DNA of 64,000 bases from a virus (IMGVR_UViG_3300035208_005226:12315-76314), one strand, 5' to 3'. Shown: positions 5,121 to 40,900, counted from the first letter of the stretch. The notes: a model not told the origin generated them from the sequence alone. A program made the numbers and translations.

Positions 5121-5444
5121 TTATAAAATTCGCCTTATATAAACACTGCCATGTATTGGCATGCTTGTGTCTATATGTAATACTCCATCCATATCCTTCT
5201 CGCTTTCCCAAGTTCCCAGAATAATTTTTTCAAAATATGATTTCCGTATTGAATACCCGGTAGATTGTATATATGCATTATGCAGGACAAATACAGCAAG
5301 TTTTGTGTCGTGAACTTCCTCTGCGTAATGCAACACAAATGCACGAATGGAGTTTGATATAGATGGTTTATTTTTCTTCTTTCGATTCATTTCATCTGTA
5401 AAATATGCATGAAGATCTCCGATCGTATCGCATCCGTCTTTCAT
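5121..5444 (-). CDS. Hypothetical protein
   Basis: 107-aa ORF in operon orientation. Confidence 0.6.
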   Translation of the reverse strand: MKDGCDTIGDLHAYFTDEMNRKKKNKPSISNSIRAFVLHYAEEVHDTKLAVFVLHNAYIQSTGYSIRKSYFEKIILGTWESEKDMDGVLHIDTSMPIHGSVYIRRIL

Positions 5445-5508
5445 AGTAATAAATAGATCTCAATACATATATCATTTAATGCAAATGATGTGGTAACATA
5501 TAGGTTGT

Positions 5509-5652
5509 CTAATGCTTGCCATTTACTGAAATCCATCCACGACCACCACAATAACTGCACTGAGTTATTTCGTATGGTGGGATATCTCCTATGATTTTTC
5601 CGGATCCTCTGCATTCTTTACATATCTTGCCTTTCTGTTTCTTTTTCGACAT
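5509..5652 (-). CDS. 47-aa DnaJ-type zinc-finger micro-protein
   Basis: Hand translation MSKKKQKGKICKECRGSGK...CSYCGGRGW...; two CxxCxGxG motifs. Confidence 0.7.
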   Translation of the reverse strand: MSKKKQKGKICKECRGSGKIIGDIPPYEITQCSYCGGRGWISVNGKH

Positions 5653-6010
5653 TTCCCTTTGATATTATTTCTTTGATCAATTCAATCTTTTGGATTTTAT
5701 AGTTGTGTTCATTTGTATTCCAAAGACCTATTTTGTCTAGAACACGGGAATTAGATGAATAGAGATTGGCACATCTTCCCATCACAGTCTTTTTAATTGC
5801 TCTTTGTTTTACCTTTATGAGTTCTAATTGCAAGAGTCGTTTTAGAGATAGGGAGACTGCCGGTTCATCTCTATTGGTACACATTACAATCTCTTTCATT
5901 GTTGCAGGAGACTTGATCAGTAGATATGCTAGCACATCTGAGTCTACCGCATTCAATTTACATAATTGTAATGAGGTACTGATTTCATGTAGTTTTTCTA
6001 TATCAGGCAT
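5618..6010 (-). CDS. Winged-helix transcriptional regulator (TrmB/MarR-like, archaeal type)
   Basis: LNAVDSDVLAYLL..PATMKEIV...RDEPAVSLSLKRLLQLELIK...GR..NLY pattern; likely start MPDIEK at 6010. Confidence 0.7.
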   Translation of the reverse strand: MPDIEKLHEISTSLQLCKLNAVDSDVLAYLLIKSPATMKEIVMCTNRDEPAVSLSLKRLLQLELIKVKQRAIKKTVMGRCANLYSSNSRVLDKIGLWNTNEHNYKIQKIELIKEIISKGNVEKETERQDM

Positions 6011-6130
6011 AGATTTATTACCTCTCGTGTTAATATTTATTTCCCCAAACACAAACAACAAGCAAGATCGGAATTGTCTTTTTCCTTTTCTTCTTGTTTA
6101 GAATCGATTGTTTGAGGAGTTGCGTCTGTC

Positions 6131-6478
6131 TTATTTTTCCGCGGTTATTCTAAGCAAGGCATTGTGTGCTGTTATAACGCATATCATATGTTTTTCCTCA
6201 TAGCATTCGTCATTCCTGTAATAACAAATGGTATCTCCCTGGGATAGGTGCATATTAATGTGATCTACGTCTACAACTTTTCCTCTATCCAGATATGACT
6301 GCAATCCAAGTTTTTCTTTTGGCTCGTAATACTTGCAAAATGTTTGTGCTTGCGTCCAGGGGTTATTAACTATCGTTGCAAAAATACAGTGGTTTAATTC
6401 TTTGGTCGCTGCACATATGTTTGATATGTGCACTGCGCCCGGGTCAGGTTTAACGTAATGTTTGCATTGTTCTGTCAT
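6131..6478 (-). CDS. Cys-rich hypothetical protein
   Basis: 115-aa ORF, CKHY...C...C...CKYYEP. Confidence 0.55.
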   Translation of the reverse strand: MTEQCKHYVKPDPGAVHISNICAATKELNHCIFATIVNNPWTQAQTFCKYYEPKEKLGLQSYLDRGKVVDVDHINMHLSQGDTICYYRNDECYEEKHMICVITAHNALLRITAEK

Positions 6479-6505
6479 GGTTTTGCCTTGTTGTTATTCG
6501 CAGTT

Positions 6506-6748
6506 TCAAACTCCATTTTTACATTGTTTCCAAAGTTTCCTGGCTTGTTCCATATCCGTTCCATATGGTCCACAAGCATTGCATTTGCGGCAATATACAA
6601 ATACATAATTAGTGAAGAGAGTCCCTCCCTCACAATAGTCAAGATCTATGCCTTTGCAAAACGGACAAGGACAGTCTTTGCCTAGATTGTTTAGCTCTTG
6701 GATGATTAGGCGACTTCTTGATGATCCAGGCGGCCAGTTTTCAGTCAT
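6506..6748 (-). CDS. Lar-like restriction alleviation protein
   Basis: CPFC...VYCRKCNACGP...EQARKLW matches the Lar CPFCG..C..CGA.GP..EA..WN pattern. Confidence 0.65.
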   Translation of the reverse strand: MTENWPPGSSRSRLIIQELNNLGKDCPCPFCKGIDLDYCEGGTLFTNYVFVYCRKCNACGPYGTDMEQARKLWKQCKNGV

Positions 6749-6992
6749 GAGTATTCACCTCCCCAACCGGGCTATAATTTATACAATACTTTCGATTGGG
6801 TAAATCTAATGGGCATATAATTTCCCAAAAATCACAGTCATATACACTCGGATCATATCTTTGCATTTCATCGCAATGGTTTACGCAATCAACTGTACTA
6901 TCATTTGGCCTGCAAACATAAACCATGTCATCTTTGATGTAGACTGGCTGGCCTCGTTGGATGTATTCACCTGCTAGTAATATTTCTTTCAT
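6741..6992 (-). CDS. Cys-rich hypothetical protein
   Basis: 83-aa ORF with overlapping start/stop junctions. Confidence 0.55.
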   Translation of the reverse strand: MKEILLAGEYIQRGQPVYIKDDMVYVCRPNDSTVDCVNHCDEMQRYDPSVYDCDFWEIICPLDLPNRKYCINYSPVGEVNTHD

Positions 6993-7384
6993 TTTAATTT
7001 CCTTATAACCCTATCTTGATTGTAAGTTGGACCTTCATGTAGGGTGAGGTTTTCATCCTGATATTGAACAGATACACCATTAATATAAGTGGCATCTTGA
7101 TTGAATTGTATATGTAAGGGTTCTCCGTTTATGGATACCCATCTGGCAATAGGTAATATACAAGGATACAATTTAGTCACTTTAATATCTATACCTTGAA
7201 TTGATAATTCGCCTATATTCAATAATTCATCGCCTTTATCCATCCTAGAACAATAAGTAGGATACTTTTCATTATGACAAGTTTTACGGTTTATGCACTT
7301 ATAGCAGAATTTGTGGCCCTGACTCTTCATCTCATTGATGGTTTCTTCTTCCCGGAGGATTTGCATTTCATAATTTTCAGTCAT
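6989..7384 (-). CDS. Hypothetical protein
   Basis: 131-aa ORF with CYKC motif. Confidence 0.55.
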   Translation of the reverse strand: MTENYEMQILREEETINEMKSQGHKFCYKCINRKTCHNEKYPTYCSRMDKGDELLNIGELSIQGIDIKVTKLYPCILPIARWVSINGEPLHIQFNQDATYINGVSVQYQDENLTLHEGPTYNQDRVIRKLK

Positions 7385-7386
7385 GA

Positions 7387-7590
7387 TTATTCATCTCCTA
7401 TATATTCACATAAAACATCCACCGTATCCGGAAAGAGACAATGGTAACCAATTACTATGTATTTCTTGTATCCAAACATGATTATAGAATTAACTGGGGG
7501 AATCCAAGTAGAATTAGATAGATCACCCAATGGTGGATTAATCCATTTATCATATTTAACTTCTACATATAATGTAAATTTTGGTATCAT
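7387..7590 (-). CDS. Hypothetical protein
   Basis: 67-aa ORF, ATGA overlap with upstream micro-ORF. Confidence 0.5.
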   Translation of the reverse strand: MIPKFTLYVEVKYDKWINPPLGDLSNSTWIPPVNSIIMFGYKKYIVIGYHCLFPDTVDVLCEYIGDE

Positions 7591-7715
7591 GATTCATCTG
7601 CACCATCTTCAATTGTTCCTGATCCATTACATTGCCTACAAGTTAGATCTGTTTCAGGATCATAACCATTGCCTCTGCATCTAGGACATGTCTTTGTATA
7701 CTCTTCACGAGTCAT
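7587..7715 (-). CDS. 42-aa DnaJ-type zinc-finger micro-protein
   Basis: Hand translation MTREEYTKTCPRCRGNGY...CRQCNGSGT...; two CxxCxGxG motifs; ATGA overlaps at both ends. Confidence 0.7.
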   Translation of the reverse strand: MTREEYTKTCPRCRGNGYDPETDLTCRQCNGSGTIEDGADES

Positions 7716-10203: not shown

Positions 10204-10528
10204 GTTGTCGCCTCATGAGTTTATCTGAGAATTGTTTGAATCTGTTTAGCAATCTTACTGTTATATTTCCTTCAACACAGTTTAACATATTACGCAGACA
10301 TTCTTCACATATGCGGGGATATTCGCGGTGATCGATTCTATACTCGTCCATATCCCAGAATGATGTAGTGTGGACGACTCTTGGCTGTATGTTTATTGAG
10401 ATGTCCACGTAATGATATAGTTTGCGGCCACATGCATTACAATATATGGGATCATCTGGAATTTCCTTGATTTTACTCAAGTCGATTACAGATGCCATGC
10501 ACAGGTTACCAAATGATTTTTCCCCCAT
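10196..10528 (-). CDS. Zinc-finger hypothetical protein
   Basis: CNACG ... CEEC pairs. Confidence 0.55.
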   Translation of the reverse strand: MGEKSFGNLCMASVIDLSKIKEIPDDPIYCNACGRKLYHYVDISINIQPRVVHTTSFWDMDEYRIDHREYPRICEECLRNMLNCVEGNITVRLLNRFKQFSDKLMRRQHD

Positions 10529-11347: not shown

Positions 11348-11379
11348 TGGCGGGAATGGGGTTTGATCCCACTCCTGCC
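11348..11379 (-). ncRNA. tRNA-like minihelix (acceptor stem + T-arm only)
   Basis: GGCAGGA-GTGGG-ATCAAAC-CCCAT-TCCCGCC-A: 7+5 bp stem (one A-C), 7-nt T-like loop, discriminator A. Confidence 0.45.
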
Positions 11380-11574
11380 TATTGTATCTCCCTGGAGAAG
11401 AAAGAAATGAAAAAACATCGGACCTATGTTGTCCCTACATAGTTTAGCCTCCGTGCCCAGAGTAAAGATTATGTGGGACTGAACCCATCATAACCTCCCA
11501 CATATTTTCTACACCCAGTGATTTTCTGCTCTGGAATTTTTGTTCCGTCATTGCAGGAGTCAATTGAAAATATG

Positions 11575-11814
11575 TTATACGTTGAATATTGCAATGTCAT
11601 CTGCAATATCTGCTGATTTCTTTAGTTCTGCTCTTACTAGGGTTCTTGAGATGTTTTCAAGTTTGTTTATTTTCTGCTGAAGTTCTGTAATAGTTAGTTC
11701 CGTTTCTTTTATTCTGTCTTTGAGATATGACAGTTCATTCTTAAGATTTTCAATTTCTGGATCTGGTTTTATTTCAGATATATAAGATGTTAATTGTGGT
11801 AACTTTTTGCTCAT
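11575..11814 (-). CDS. Coiled-coil hypothetical protein
   Basis: Heptad-like segment IENLKNELSYLKDRIKETELTITELQQKINKLENI. Confidence 0.6.
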   Translation of the reverse strand: MSKKLPQLTSYISEIKPDPEIENLKNELSYLKDRIKETELTITELQQKINKLENISRTLVRAELKKSADIADDIAIFNV

Positions 11815-11876
11815 TGTGGTTCCTCGGTTAGAATTCTGTTTATTATCTTATTTATAGTATTGGTTTCGTTAAGATA

Positions 11877-12002
11877 TGTCGATTGTAGGATTTGAACCTA
11901 CTTCTGTGGCTTGAGACCACCGTCTTTACCAATCTAATAAAATACAAATGATAGATCTATATTTCCCACGGGCATGATTTTATTAGACCAGACCAAATCG
12001 AC
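11877..12002 (-). tRNA. tRNA-like gene with ~54-nt hairpin insertion in the D-arm and aberrant anticodon loop (identity ambiguous, Glu-like)
   Basis: Acceptor GTCGATT/AATCGAC, D-stem GTCT/AGAC, anticodon stem GTGGT/GCCAC around CTCAA, T-arm GTAGG-TTCAAAT-CCTAC. Insert is bounded by CTAATAAAAT/ATTTTATTAG. Confidence 0.7.
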
Positions 12003-12029
12003 AATGGGAATTGTTAACATTCTTTGAAA

Positions 12030-12200
12030 TGGCACCAGTGAGATTCGCACTCACGTAGCCCTACGGCGGCAGATTTTGAGTTTGTTGTTCTCTGGTAACA
12101 GGCTGACCCGTCGTGGGTCGATTTAAGCTGACTTTACAGACACCCTCATATGAAGCAATTAGTCGCTACACGCTGCTGGTTCTTCATAGTTTCTGATACC
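12030..12200 (-). tRNA. tRNA-Leu(CAA)-like element; 3' two-thirds recognisable, 5' domain expanded
   Basis: CT-CAA-AA-TCTGC, long variable arm, GTGAG-TGCGAAT-CTCAC, TGGTGCC-A. A matching 5' acceptor strand GGTATCA lies at 12200-12194. Confidence 0.5.
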
Positions 12201-12205
12201 AGAGA

Positions 12206-12263
12206 TAACCAGAATCGGGGATCGAACCCGAACGGCGCTACATGTGCCAACCCACTTCCGGTT
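12206..12263 (-). ncRNA. Anticodon-less tRNA-like element
   Basis: AACCGGAA/TTCTGGTT acceptor, 24-nt linker, T-arm TCGGG-TTCGATC-CCCGA. Confidence 0.5.
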
Positions 12264-12285
12264 TTTGTTATAACTCATCCTGATG

Positions 12286-12336
12286 ATCGGATGTAGAGGG
12301 TTTGAACCTCCATTGATCTCATATCAAACATCCGAT
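12286..12336 (-). ncRNA. Anticodon-less tRNA-like element
   Basis: ATCGGATGT/ACATCCGAT stem, single small hairpin TTGAT-ATGAG-ATCAA, T-arm GGAGG-TTCAAAC-CCTCT. Confidence 0.5.
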
Positions 12337-12421
12337 AGGCTGATTGTTTTTATAGAGGTATCAACCTATGAATTTAACCTCTTTTTGATTCAAACGTCTT
12401 TAAATCTCATCCATTTCTGGA

Positions 12422-12456
12422 TAACCGAATAGTGGAATTTAACCACAATTCAATCA
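12422..12456 (-). ncRNA. Degenerate tRNA-like minihelix
   Basis: TGATTGAAT/ATTCGGTTA stem (G-U rich) stacked on GTGG-TTAAATT-CCAC. Confidence 0.35.
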
Positions 12457-12704
12457 GACTTATGGAGGTCTTACCCCTGATTTGACCCAGGGATAAGATT
12501 ATTGTTATTTGCGACAGGAAGTTGAGTAAGTTTCCTGTATGAGTTATATTTGCGAAGGGTATCAGTCTGATGAGGATAAAATGTTTGTACTAAGTAGGTG
12601 CATTCGATGGCTTGTTTCCGTGTCTTGTGGTCCTCCTGTAGTTGTTTGGCCTCACCAAGATGTGATTATTGGATCACCGGCCAAAAAAGTTTGAGTTAAT
12701 AAGG

Positions 12705-15640: not shown

Positions 15641-15946
15641 TCATGATCTGTTTCCGATTTCTTCAGGGAACCCATGCAATTTGATTGCGATAGATTGTCT
15701 ACACGATCCACTCTCTCTCTCTCTCTCTGTATCGTATAATAAAATTGCCTGATAAAGTGGGCAAAATCCATCAGATTCTCTCCCTCCGAACCAACACGAA
15801 GACGATTGCAACTTGTATCCTGCTTTAAGGAGACCATTTACCAGTTCCTCAAATTTATCACAATCTGAACTTTCTACAACTTTAATTGAGGATGGGGCAA
15901 TCATTATATATCTTCCTCCCCCGGTTTCTTCAATGATAAAACCCAA
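15641..15946 (-). CDS. DUF1737-like small protein with microsatellite in 3' part
   Basis: IKVVESSDCDKFEELVNGLLKAGYKL...YQAILL resembles DUF1737; the tail reads through (AG)9. Confidence 0.45.
   Translation of the reverse strand: MGFIIEETGGGRYIMIAPSSIKVVESSDCDKFEELVNGLLKAGYKLQSSSCWFGGRESDGFCPLYQAILLYDTERERESGSCRQSIAIKLHGFPEEIGNRS
15711..15728. repeat. (CT)9 dinucleotide microsatellite
   Basis: ctctctctctctctctct read directly. Confidence 0.95.
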
Positions 15947-37957: not shown

Positions 37958-40900
37958 ATGGTGGATCCTAAAAAAAATATCAATGATAATGTAAGAGTTA
38001 AGATCTTGCTTGACGCCGCAAAGAAAGGCGATGAGAATCTTGAGCACATTAGAACGCGATATAAGGATGCCATAAAGGAGTATGGGGCCGATGAAGACAT
38101 CATACTTGTTAATCCTAAGCTGGTGAGTGATCGCAAAGAGCTTAATGACATGATGCAACATGTCATGCTGGATAAAACTTTTGCTGTGGATACCGAGGTA
38201 AATCCTAGGGCCGGAAAACCCGGGACTATTCAAATTGCATCTAGATCAGGTGTACATACTATTGCGGTTAATGCATTTAGAGAAAACGAAGCGGATATGA
38301 CATATCTTAGAAATAAGATAGGGTCGTTGTTAAACCGGGATGACGTGCATTCATATTACCATAATAGAATGTTTGATATGGACTTTCTCACCAGGGATGG
38401 GTTTAATCTGGCATTGACAAATTCAGGGGGGGAAGTTACAGCACATGATACAGTTGCATTGGCATCCAGACTTGGGAAGGCAAACTTGCTTGCTAATCCA
38501 GAAATGGGAAATTCTCTGGCATCATTTGTACTGAGATCTTTGGGAAAATATCTGCCTAAGAAGTTGTCTGGGTCTGGATTTGGATTTAACTATAATGTTG
38601 AGACATCCAAAACCAAAGATTTTGATAAGTGGTTTCTTAGGTATGGTGCTGGAGATGCACTAGCACTGTATGAAGTGGTATCTAAGTATTATGGAGAGCA
38701 CAATGATCTTAAGAACCTGAAGAATATTGGAGCATCCAAGGATCAGATTGATTTTATAAATAAGATTGATGAGATAGAGCATGCAAAGAGATCAATGTTT
38801 AGGCCACCGCCTAGTGTTCAGGATTTCATGGAAGGACGGAATATTATAGCAACCAGGGTTAAAAAGGGAAATGATGGGAAGTTATATGTTGAAAGTTATT
38901 TGTCACCGTCTGATGAATCCCAAAATGCAGTGATGAATTACCTAAGCGACAATAATATTTTAGATATTAAAAAAAAGCACGAAACAGGAATATTGGAAAA
39001 GGCAGCAGCAGTAGGAGTAAAACTAAAAAAAGGAGAAATTGCAGAGGAAGTAAATCTAAAAGCAGAAAGAGAAATAGCAAGTTATCTGCATACAAACCAC
39101 GGAATAGACATTTATAAAGCAGTTGCAGATGCATTATCCGGAACTGCAAAGACCGATGTAAAATCCGGGATTAATCCAATTGCAAGGATGTATGCAAAGG
39201 GTGTAGCCGGAAGACTTGGGATGTTTAGATCCAACCGGGTGTATGTATCTGATGCATATCGAAACAAACCTGGGCAGGGCGGATCATATGCTAAATATGC
39301 CAGTGCATACAGCAAGGACAACAAGATTGGAATTGGATATATTCCGGAAATAAGAAGCGGGGATTTTTCAATTGTAAAGGCATTCAGACAGATGTATGAA
39401 GCATCTCCCGAATACCTGATGAAATCTGTGGGGCACTTTGTTAAAGGGGATATAAACAAGGGAAATGTAGAATCTGCAACATCTGACATATTTAATAGGG
39501 TAAAGAGTCTGCCTACCGATATAAACGAGGTAAAGAATTATTTTGGTGCATTGGGAATTTCACCTGATGTTATTGATGCAAACCCGGAGATGTGGATTAG
39601 GGATTATCATAGACATGGCCTTGTGGGAACATGGCTTGGACTTAGTAATGTGGCAAAAGGATTGACTGGAAAGAAAAGTATAGAACGAAATGTGGTTGGT
39701 GCAATTAAACAGGTTGGGTTTGATCCTACAACCGGAGATCCTATTTATGCAAGGAAGTTACAGGAATCGAAGTCTGAAATATCGGAGTCCGGATTAAACT
39801 CGTTGCTTAATGGAGTATATGAATCGTTTGCCGGGATAAAAATAGCAAAACATAGTGTTCCAGGATTTACTCCCGGAAAGTCTGCTGCTGCATTTGGATC
39901 GTTGCTTGGTAGTGGAAGAGCTGTTGAAATTATAACAAAGATGGGATTACCGGAAAGTGTGGCTGCCATACCAGGAAAGTTTAGATTCAGACAGCAATTG
40001 ATGTCATCTGCTGTTAATTATGGTGCGGCATATGAGAACATGGACGAGCGGATGCAATCCGTAAATGCAATCAACACACCCGAAATGAATGAGTTATATG
40101 GGGAAACAGAGCTGCTTAACAAGATGCCTATACGATCCAGGTTTAAAGAAGGAGATGTTGATGAATCACATAGAGAACGGTTGAGATCATTGGGATTTGA
40201 ACCTGAAAAGATTGAAGAACTGGTTGCAAATGGCGGAGAAATATTAAGAGAGGCACTGACATCCCCGGTATTGTATGGAAAAGGAAACGAATGGTGGAAA
40301 CAGTCCAGAATTATTGTTACAGATGATGTAAAGCAGAAGTTTACTGACTTGTGGGAAAATATTGAGAATTATTCGCCTGAAGTTCAGAATAAGATACGAT
40401 CTGCTCTTGCTATAGGAACAAAAGGGCCGTTTAGAGATGCAAACGGACTGGTGCAGGTTGGAGATCTTGATACCAGGATGGTGGGACATAATAAGAATTA
40501 TGAGTTATCCACAGGGTTCTATCAGGGAACTGTAGGTCAGGAAATAACATCTATGCTGACTGATAAGCAGTTTAGACATGAGGCATTTATTGAAAATATA
40601 CCAAAGATGATTCCAGAAATTTATGCAAGCGGCGATAAGGGAATTACACCCGGTGGAAGATCGCAATATATAAAAGACTCCTATGATTTTTTTGCTCAGA
40701 TAGGACTGCTTAAGAGCATTCCGGATAAAAAAGTGGGAATCAAAGCAGCAAAAGGCATCAAAAACACCATATTAACTGAAATGAGTTATAGGAAGGCATA
40801 TGGGAAAAATGTACTTAGTGATGCTGAAGTTCTGAAGATGTCTCGTTTGTTTAATTTAGTGATGTCAAAAAGAGTTGCCAGAGACGAAACTATAATGAGG

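Follow-up and report, generated by a model that had tools for sequence, protein, structure and literature searches.

Miniature tRNA look-alikes beside a structured RNA in the reduced tRNA array of a probably archaeal virus

The array and the virus that carries it

An array of about 650 non-coding bases lies in the window, by which we mean the whole 64,000-nucleotide stretch analysed (G000:C44:12315-76314), and its elements follow one another on one strand in the order A1, A2, B, C, X, a tRNA-Leu stump and E (Table 1). No ORF of at least 50 codons was found over 11877-12520, and the genes on either side are likewise encoded on the minus strand. Between A2 and B, an 85-nt stretch (12336-12421) holds small hairpins that are unexplained.

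Table 1. Elements of the array and, below it, two outlying hairpins, in window coordinates.
Element	Coordinates	Strand	Description
A1	12469-12498	-	12-bp hairpin, 6-nt loop GTCAAA
A2	12423-12454	-	Bare minihelix, 7-bp closure stacked on 4-bp stem
B	12287-12334	-	Mini tRNA look-alike, 47 nt plus discriminator A
C	12207-12262	-	Mini tRNA look-alike, 55 nt plus discriminator T
X RNA	12089-12205	-	117-nt structured RNA, 12-13-bp closing stem, three hairpins
tRNA-Leu(CAA) 3' stump	12030-12081	-	Anticodon loop through discriminator
E	11877-12002	-	tRNA, anticodon TCA (11914-11912), 55-nt D-loop hairpin (11987-11933)
F	11471-11503	-	Ambiguous hairpin, degenerate T-arm-like core, z = -2.3
G	11348-11379	-	12-bp (7+5) GC-rich hairpin, z = -5.5

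Contig C44, from which the window is taken, is 76,314 bp long with a 127-bp terminal overlap and a G+C content of 38.8%, whereas the bin that holds it is otherwise at about 69%. Because of this low G+C and the overlapping ends, C44 is regarded as a complete virus genome of 76,187 bp that was mis-binned with a bacterial genome of about 69% G+C. Further low-GC outlier contigs of the same bin are C137, C200, C226 and C242. The gene products of C44 include a large terminase, a tail tube protein, a family-B DNA polymerase and a thymidylate synthase, and the virus is a tailed one whose host is probably a methane-producing archaeon of the Methanomicrobiales. An archaeal host seems likely because the thymidylate synthase has its nearest relatives, at about 50% identity, among proteins of Methanospirillum and other Methanomicrobiales, because histone-fold genes are present (weak in the window virus, clear in its relative L010), and because tRNA-Tyr(GTA) of the related contig L008 (1568-1661, plus strand) carries a 23-nt intron in the anticodon loop. 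The same virus was found in two other assemblies with a tRNA-like cluster that is 100% identical across all three, and therefore offers no within-lineage covariation.

The tRNA-type features of the array are real and strongly concentrated. When both strands of the 76,187-bp genome were scanned, a strict T-arm motif (5-bp stem closed by G-C, loop TTCRA) occurred three times, always on the minus strand at 11885-12311, against 0.47 in shuffles. Full modules, defined as a T arm followed by 7/7 acceptor closure, occurred five times at 11878-12334 of the minus strand against 0.4 per shuffled genome, as counted by a scanner that demanded intact stems and would pass over any with broken ones. Both sets share one strand and about 460 nt. 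The shuffle test proposed by an earlier reading of the sequence alone (hereafter the sequence-only reading) came out in favour of T-loop motif enrichment. Hairpins of at least 10 bp are common genome-wide, at about 59 per strand. No tRNA was found in the window by ARAGORN at default settings or by Rfam at the gathering score, which for RF00005 is 29 bits; B (19.3 bits) and E (21.7 bits) stay under this threshold, and C is absent from the matches.

The sequence-only reading had described 11348-12497 as a cluster of anticodon-less tRNA minihelices, which holds for B, C, A2 and plausibly G, while the span also contains tRNA E, the X RNA and the tRNA-Leu stump, then left unseparated. C and B, which it had placed at 12206-12263 and 12286-12336 as acceptor plus T-arm modules with a linker or one hairpin, are clear miniature tRNA look-alikes (minis), in which a single short hairpin replaces the D and anticodon arms beneath 7-bp acceptors and perfect T arms. 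In B the acceptor is perfect, the one hairpin has 5 bp and a 5-nt loop, the T loop is TTCAAAC (fold z = -2.4), and the weak Rfam tRNA match shows the D and anticodon arms deleted. C, 24 nt away, has one G-U pair in its acceptor, a 24-nt core without cloverleaf and the T loop TTCGATC. A 7-bp acceptor with a 5-bp T stem and a TTCRA-type loop is present in B, C and E. Neither B, with its 5-nt loop on the sole central hairpin, nor C, without any such arm, has an anticodon arm with a 7-nt loop and U33, and the minis are unable to decode; E does possess an anticodon arm.

Of the copies that had been called more degenerate, the one at 12422-12456 is upheld as A2, whose 7-bp closure contains two G-U pairs and whose loop is TTAAATT; with A1-U72, U73 and the trailer ATC it belongs to the same mini subfamily as C. 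The shared (A/T)ATC trailer was also correctly seen, as T-ATC follows C, A2 and two minis of a relative. For G, previously taken for a pure minihelix (11348-11379), the 7+5-bp geometry agrees with that description and the hairpin is very stable, but the stem has one A.C mismatch and the 7-nt loop ATCAAAC, followed by A and ATC, is a non-canonical T-loop, which makes G a plausible minihelix. It lies between two genes, 55 nt ahead of the next one. The remaining two copies drop out: A1 (12470-12497) is minihelix-like only loosely and is a plain hairpin, in a stretch that folds together with A2 at z = -5.1, and F (11471-11503), located within what may be an ORF of 35 codons, is a hairpin of ambiguous character. 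A1, A2 and G have no T-run after them.

Relatives and the other RNAs of the array

The informative relatives are different viruses or viral contigs, namely L010/L014 (43 kb), whose terminase and portal are only about 30% identical to those of the window virus, L001/L006 (76,278 bp), which has only thymidylate synthase and X in common with it, and L008 (3.1 kb), which carries 13 tRNA genes and X. Relatives hold 7 to 13 canonical tRNAs, and none in the window virus is accepted by ARAGORN. Searches with the flanking small ORFs, and with the terminase in IMG/VR, returned no relatives; the cluster had no DNA-level counterpart among GenBank phages, in which the terminase could be matched only at protein level, at about 21%. 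Pattern scans for the E insert, X and the GGT-T-ATC end recovered, besides chance matches, no more than these same two contigs of viruses, and the scan of genome contigs had no match. Apart from RNA genes, the sole DNA match between the window and L010 is 15651-15946 (86.5% over 297 bp; protein 81% identical), a shared stretch that hints at recent module exchange. L001 also encodes a class II-type nucleotidyltransferase with an HD domain, resembling CCA-adding enzymes, beside a metallophosphatase (5430-6815, plus strand, and 6824-7609, minus strand); the two may form a tRNA-end repair pair and have no counterpart in the window virus.

X is a new conserved structured RNA that is not a tRNA and is known from viruses only. 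Copies were found in L010 (9846-9961), in L008 (1905-2020) and, in two parts, in L001 (1226-1293) and L006 (about 7310-7350), and their identity across viruses is 81-92% (92% for L010) although the proteins are about 30% identical or unrelated. Four compensatory pairs occur among three sequences, and an X covariance model has one match each in L010, L008 and L001. No match was obtained for X among Rfam families, for its covariance model in 151 Methanomicrobiales genomes, or for the cluster by BLAST against 301 Methanomicrobiales genomes. The predicted closing stem of X begins 0-1 nt past the discriminator of whatever precedes it, which is C in the window virus (1 nt), the mini M3 in L010, tRNA-Trp in L001 and tRNA-Gly in L008; this slot is never empty and always holds a tRNA or a mini. 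In L008, tRNA-Met follows a few bases after X.

In the 76,278-bp virus a TnpB-only insertion sequence (L001 72-1214, plus strand, and flanks; L006 7350-8750) sits inside the X gene, and a TnpB on G000:C137:71336-72430 is 48% identical to the TnpB of this virus. X was considered as the end or guide RNA of such an element and rejected, as its 3' end in L001 lies across the element beside tRNA-Tyr, and as L008, L010 and the window virus all carry X without TnpB.

Next to X, the tRNA-Leu stump is the product of a deletion of about 388 bp that joined X to the Leu anticodon loop, as shown by L010, which, with the order X, ORF, tRNA-Leu, keeps an intact tRNA-Leu(CAA) there (10324-10408). A tRNA-Leu shell enclosing a 110-nt domain (12030-12200) was also considered and rejected, since its 5' strand GGTATCA is part of the closing stem of X itself; the acceptor stem that seems to close this region is an accident of the deletion. 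A 25-nt spacer (12005-12029, minus strand) separates the stump from E, while in L010 the two genes are 1-2 nt apart with no spacer. The block of Leu 3' part and E is 84.5% identical to L010 over a BLAST alignment that includes a 25-nt indel, and E alone is about 97% identical, with 4 differences in 127 nt.

E becomes a tRNA(tca) of 73-75 nt for ARAGORN once the insert is removed in silico. The insert hairpin is identical in L010, where position 33 is U and the anticodon loop canonical; in the window virus it is C33. No repeat of the insert was found elsewhere in the assembly, and in IMG/VR it is present only in the L010 contig. A search for a host tRNA parent of E yielded only T-arm-level matches in three Methanospirillum genomes. 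Two assignments suggested by the anticodon were rejected: tRNA-Sec needs a long variable arm and a 6-bp D stem, whereas E has a variable region of 4 nt and a D stem of 4 bp, and a suppressor for TGA recoding is at odds with the ORFs, of which 45 out of 120 end in TGA and the long ones are barely extended when TGA is read as sense.

In the archaeal bulge-helix-bulge motif, a 3-nt bulge on each strand, the two separated by 4 bp, marks the borders of an insert, and inspection of the borders in E showed a continuous helix of 11-15 bp that gives way to an internal loop of 3 x 8 nt. A bulge-helix-bulge finder reported nothing there, though it also missed the tRNA-Tyr intron of L008 used as control and made about 900-1900 calls per strand of the window. 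With introns allowed, the output of ARAGORN was limited to a forced call on E plus noise at low scores. The array as a set of intron-bearing, split or permuted tRNAs was rejected, the minis being too short rather than too long. Inserts in tRNA-like genes are also seen elsewhere: the 340-kb low-GC phage C200 has several tRNA-like genes of about 122-128 nt with perfect acceptor and T arms and inserts of about 55 nt in the 5' half, three of them in tandem sharing a motif (loci 333600-334080, 73873-73994 and 38839-38965). In L023 (IMGVR_UViG_3300028888_000045, 334,687 bp), a tRNA-Thr(TGT)-like gene at 12184-12315 (minus strand) has an insert of about 58 nt between D and anticodon arms together with A1-U72, U73 and the trailer ATC, and may belong with the C200 genes.

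Descent of the minis

Minis were found in only two viruses, the window virus and L010, whose minis M1, M2 and M3 (65, 68 and 60 nt) each combine a perfect acceptor and a T arm with a single central hairpin. M3 sits where C does in the window virus, immediately before X. It passes the Rfam tRNA model (34.7 bits) and retains the acceptor, a D arm that includes GG, and the T arm; the anticodon arm alone is absent. Since the slot before X is filled by a true tRNA (tRNA-Trp in L001, tRNA-Gly in L008) or by this tRNA without anticodon arm, comparison of the viruses shows the minis to be reduced genes descended from tRNA genes.

All five clear minis (B and C; M1 to M3) have 7/7 acceptor pairs, T stems of 4-5 bp and canonical T-loops, and differ in their cores; intact acceptor and T stems in all five are not predicted by simple decay. 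A1-U72, U73 and the ATC trailer are common to C, A2, M2 and M3, and the inner pairs of acceptor and T stem differ among them in compensatory fashion. When C and M3 are aligned, the match is significant in the shell only (z = 3.9) and not in the cores (z = 1.0); because the cores fail to align, the two may be replacements rather than orthologues. Nor are minis a routine by-product of viral tRNA arrays, since the 340-kb phage of the same assembly has 65 ARAGORN tRNAs and no mini.

Possible roles of the minis and their known counterparts

RNase P, tRNase Z and CCA-adding enzymes recognise the acceptor/T-arm half of a tRNA, which is the half that the minis keep. We favour the reading, at a probability of roughly one half, that the minis persist as processing handles for RNase P and tRNase Z, in the manner of t-elements, within a reduced tRNA array, because their top halves are intact and X starts one base after the discriminator of C. 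The array would be transcribed as one or a few precursors, in which host RNase P would cut at the 5' ends of the minis and tRNase Z past their discriminators. The precursor would thus be diced to free X RNA, E and perhaps downstream mRNAs, given that G lies so close to the following gene, and the minis would emerge as by-products, top-half RNAs of 30-55 nt that a CCA-adding enzyme could tail. A role as transcript processing signals was among the suggestions of the sequence-only reading, and it gains contextual support from the position of C and from the tRNAs that fill the same slot in relatives. Such cleavage has precedents: tRNA-like t-elements of plant mitochondria are cleaved by RNase P and tRNase Z (PMC1920247), and in the archaeon Haloferax volcanii the same enzymes cut a t-element to form the 5' end of 5S rRNA, while t-elements made by design free an RNA that they flank (PMC4326828). 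A non-canonical tRNA-like fold with T-arm consensus and acceptor-like closure, by which t-elements are defined (PMC1920247), is what the minis display. Several points speak against processing handles: minis occur in only two viruses, the cores of C and M3 do not match, B, so close to C, frees nothing obvious, and the Leu stump and the hairpins at 12336-12421 show plain decay to be active in the same array.

Plain decay is the main rival, possible though clearly less probable to us than processing handles. It holds that the minis are dead relics, functionless tRNA pseudogenes whose cores were lost by internal deletion and whose stems are intact only because they are young. The sequence-only reading had itself named decaying full-length tRNA genes in homologous loci as an outcome that would count against it, and part of the locus looks just so: a deletion demonstrably cut tRNA-Leu in the window virus, and M3 is still close enough to a tRNA to pass the Rfam model. 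For decay, too, relatives are rich in canonical tRNAs where the window virus has none that ARAGORN accepts, and there is hairpin debris between A2 and B. Mini sequences are moreover unconserved between the two viruses, and the scanner was blind to any mini with broken stems. Dead relics do not readily explain, on the other hand, that five out of five clear minis in viruses as distant as about 30% protein identity have perfect acceptor and T stems with canonical T-loops, that one subfamily keeps its ends while its inner pairs vary in a compensatory way, and that the slot before X is never vacant. Should the minis be relics only, the locus would still be a clean snapshot of the erosion of a viral tRNA array.

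It is considerably less probable that the minis, with the conserved X, are a deliberate counter-defence, in which CCA-tailed top-half mimics made on purpose occupy, soak up or misdirect host factors that read the acceptor/T-arm end. Candidate targets are enzymes that bind tRNA, or nucleases of host defence acting on the 3' tails or the acceptor stems of tRNAs, and the minis do retain exactly the part of a tRNA that end-directed enzymes read. To our knowledge, no tail- or acceptor-cutting defence of this kind is known in the presumed host, relatives have no mini sequence in common beyond the ends that one subfamily shares, and in these data a decoy looks the same as a processing by-product. Precedents exist in that Cas12a3 cuts the CCA tail, contacts the T arm through REC2 and accepts truncated substrates that retain acceptor stem and tail (PMC12851939), and in that phage tRNAs are known counter-defences against tRNA-targeting defences (PMC10264068, PMC11555353). 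If true, it would make a first case of a decoy system of this kind in a virus of archaea.

That the hairpins, above all A1, F and G, have nothing to do with tRNA and are terminators, regulatory stem-loops or DNA-level recombination or attachment sites is very improbable: long hairpins are indeed common in this genome, A1 and F lack a T-loop, the loop of G is off consensus and G stands between two genes, but terminators and attachment sites cannot explain why B, C and E fit the tRNA model or the T-arm consensus and are closed by 7-bp acceptors, attachment sites hold only the 3' part of a tRNA and not both acceptor strands, and A1, A2 and G are not followed by T-runs.

If the minis are indeed processing handles, an archaeal virus uses the tRNA-end machinery of its host to cut a non-coding transcript, on the principle of t-elements, known until now in organelles and a single haloarchaeon, and selection can continue to act on just the top half of a tRNA once decoding is lost. 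The array yields, besides, a virus-only structured RNA of 117 nt and a tRNA(UCA) whose D-loop accommodates a conserved hairpin of 55 nt.

Several known classes of RNA share part of this description. Truncated tRNA pseudogenes have the same origin by deletion from tRNA genes, shown here for tRNA-Leu, but are expected to gather stem mismatches, which are absent from the minis. Armless mitochondrial tRNAs of nematodes and mites, 42-60 nt long, are also reduced, but they keep the anticodon arm, lose the D and/or T arm and still decode, whereas the minis keep the opposite half. Phage tRNA clusters encode non-decoding stable RNAs of unknown function, the species 1 and 2 RNAs of T4 (rnaC, rnaD) and RNA1 of T5, which are co-transcribed and processed with the tRNAs. 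Like the minis, these are small RNA genes in a viral tRNA cluster that have tRNA-like ends and do not decode, a description that fits X too; they differ in coming from phages of bacteria and in their size of 66-140 nt, and we found no sequence relation to them and no Rfam match. The MHV68 tRNA-miRNA units and MALAT1 mascRNA are tRNA-like RNAs, viral and cellular, from which a neighbouring RNA is released (PMC3482243, PMC8457004). There, as is proposed for the minis, a tRNA look-alike outside translation recruits RNase P or RNase Z to set the end of the adjoining RNA and is itself CCA-tailed, but these systems are eukaryotic nuclear and keep a fuller cloverleaf. The t-elements of plant mitochondria and Haloferax volcanii have the same non-canonical fold of T-arm consensus and acceptor-like closure, directly adjoin the terminus of a further RNA, serve as substrates of RNase P and tRNase Z and include one archaeal example among known systems (PMC1920247, PMC4326828). 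The minis differ from them in being viral, in standing several in a row in a former tRNA array and in being smaller (31-55 nt), with ends that are predicted here. The array is real and tRNA-derived. With a function read from its layout, it fits best among t-elements and the non-decoding RNAs found in tRNA clusters, as a viral variant of both that is probably archaeal.
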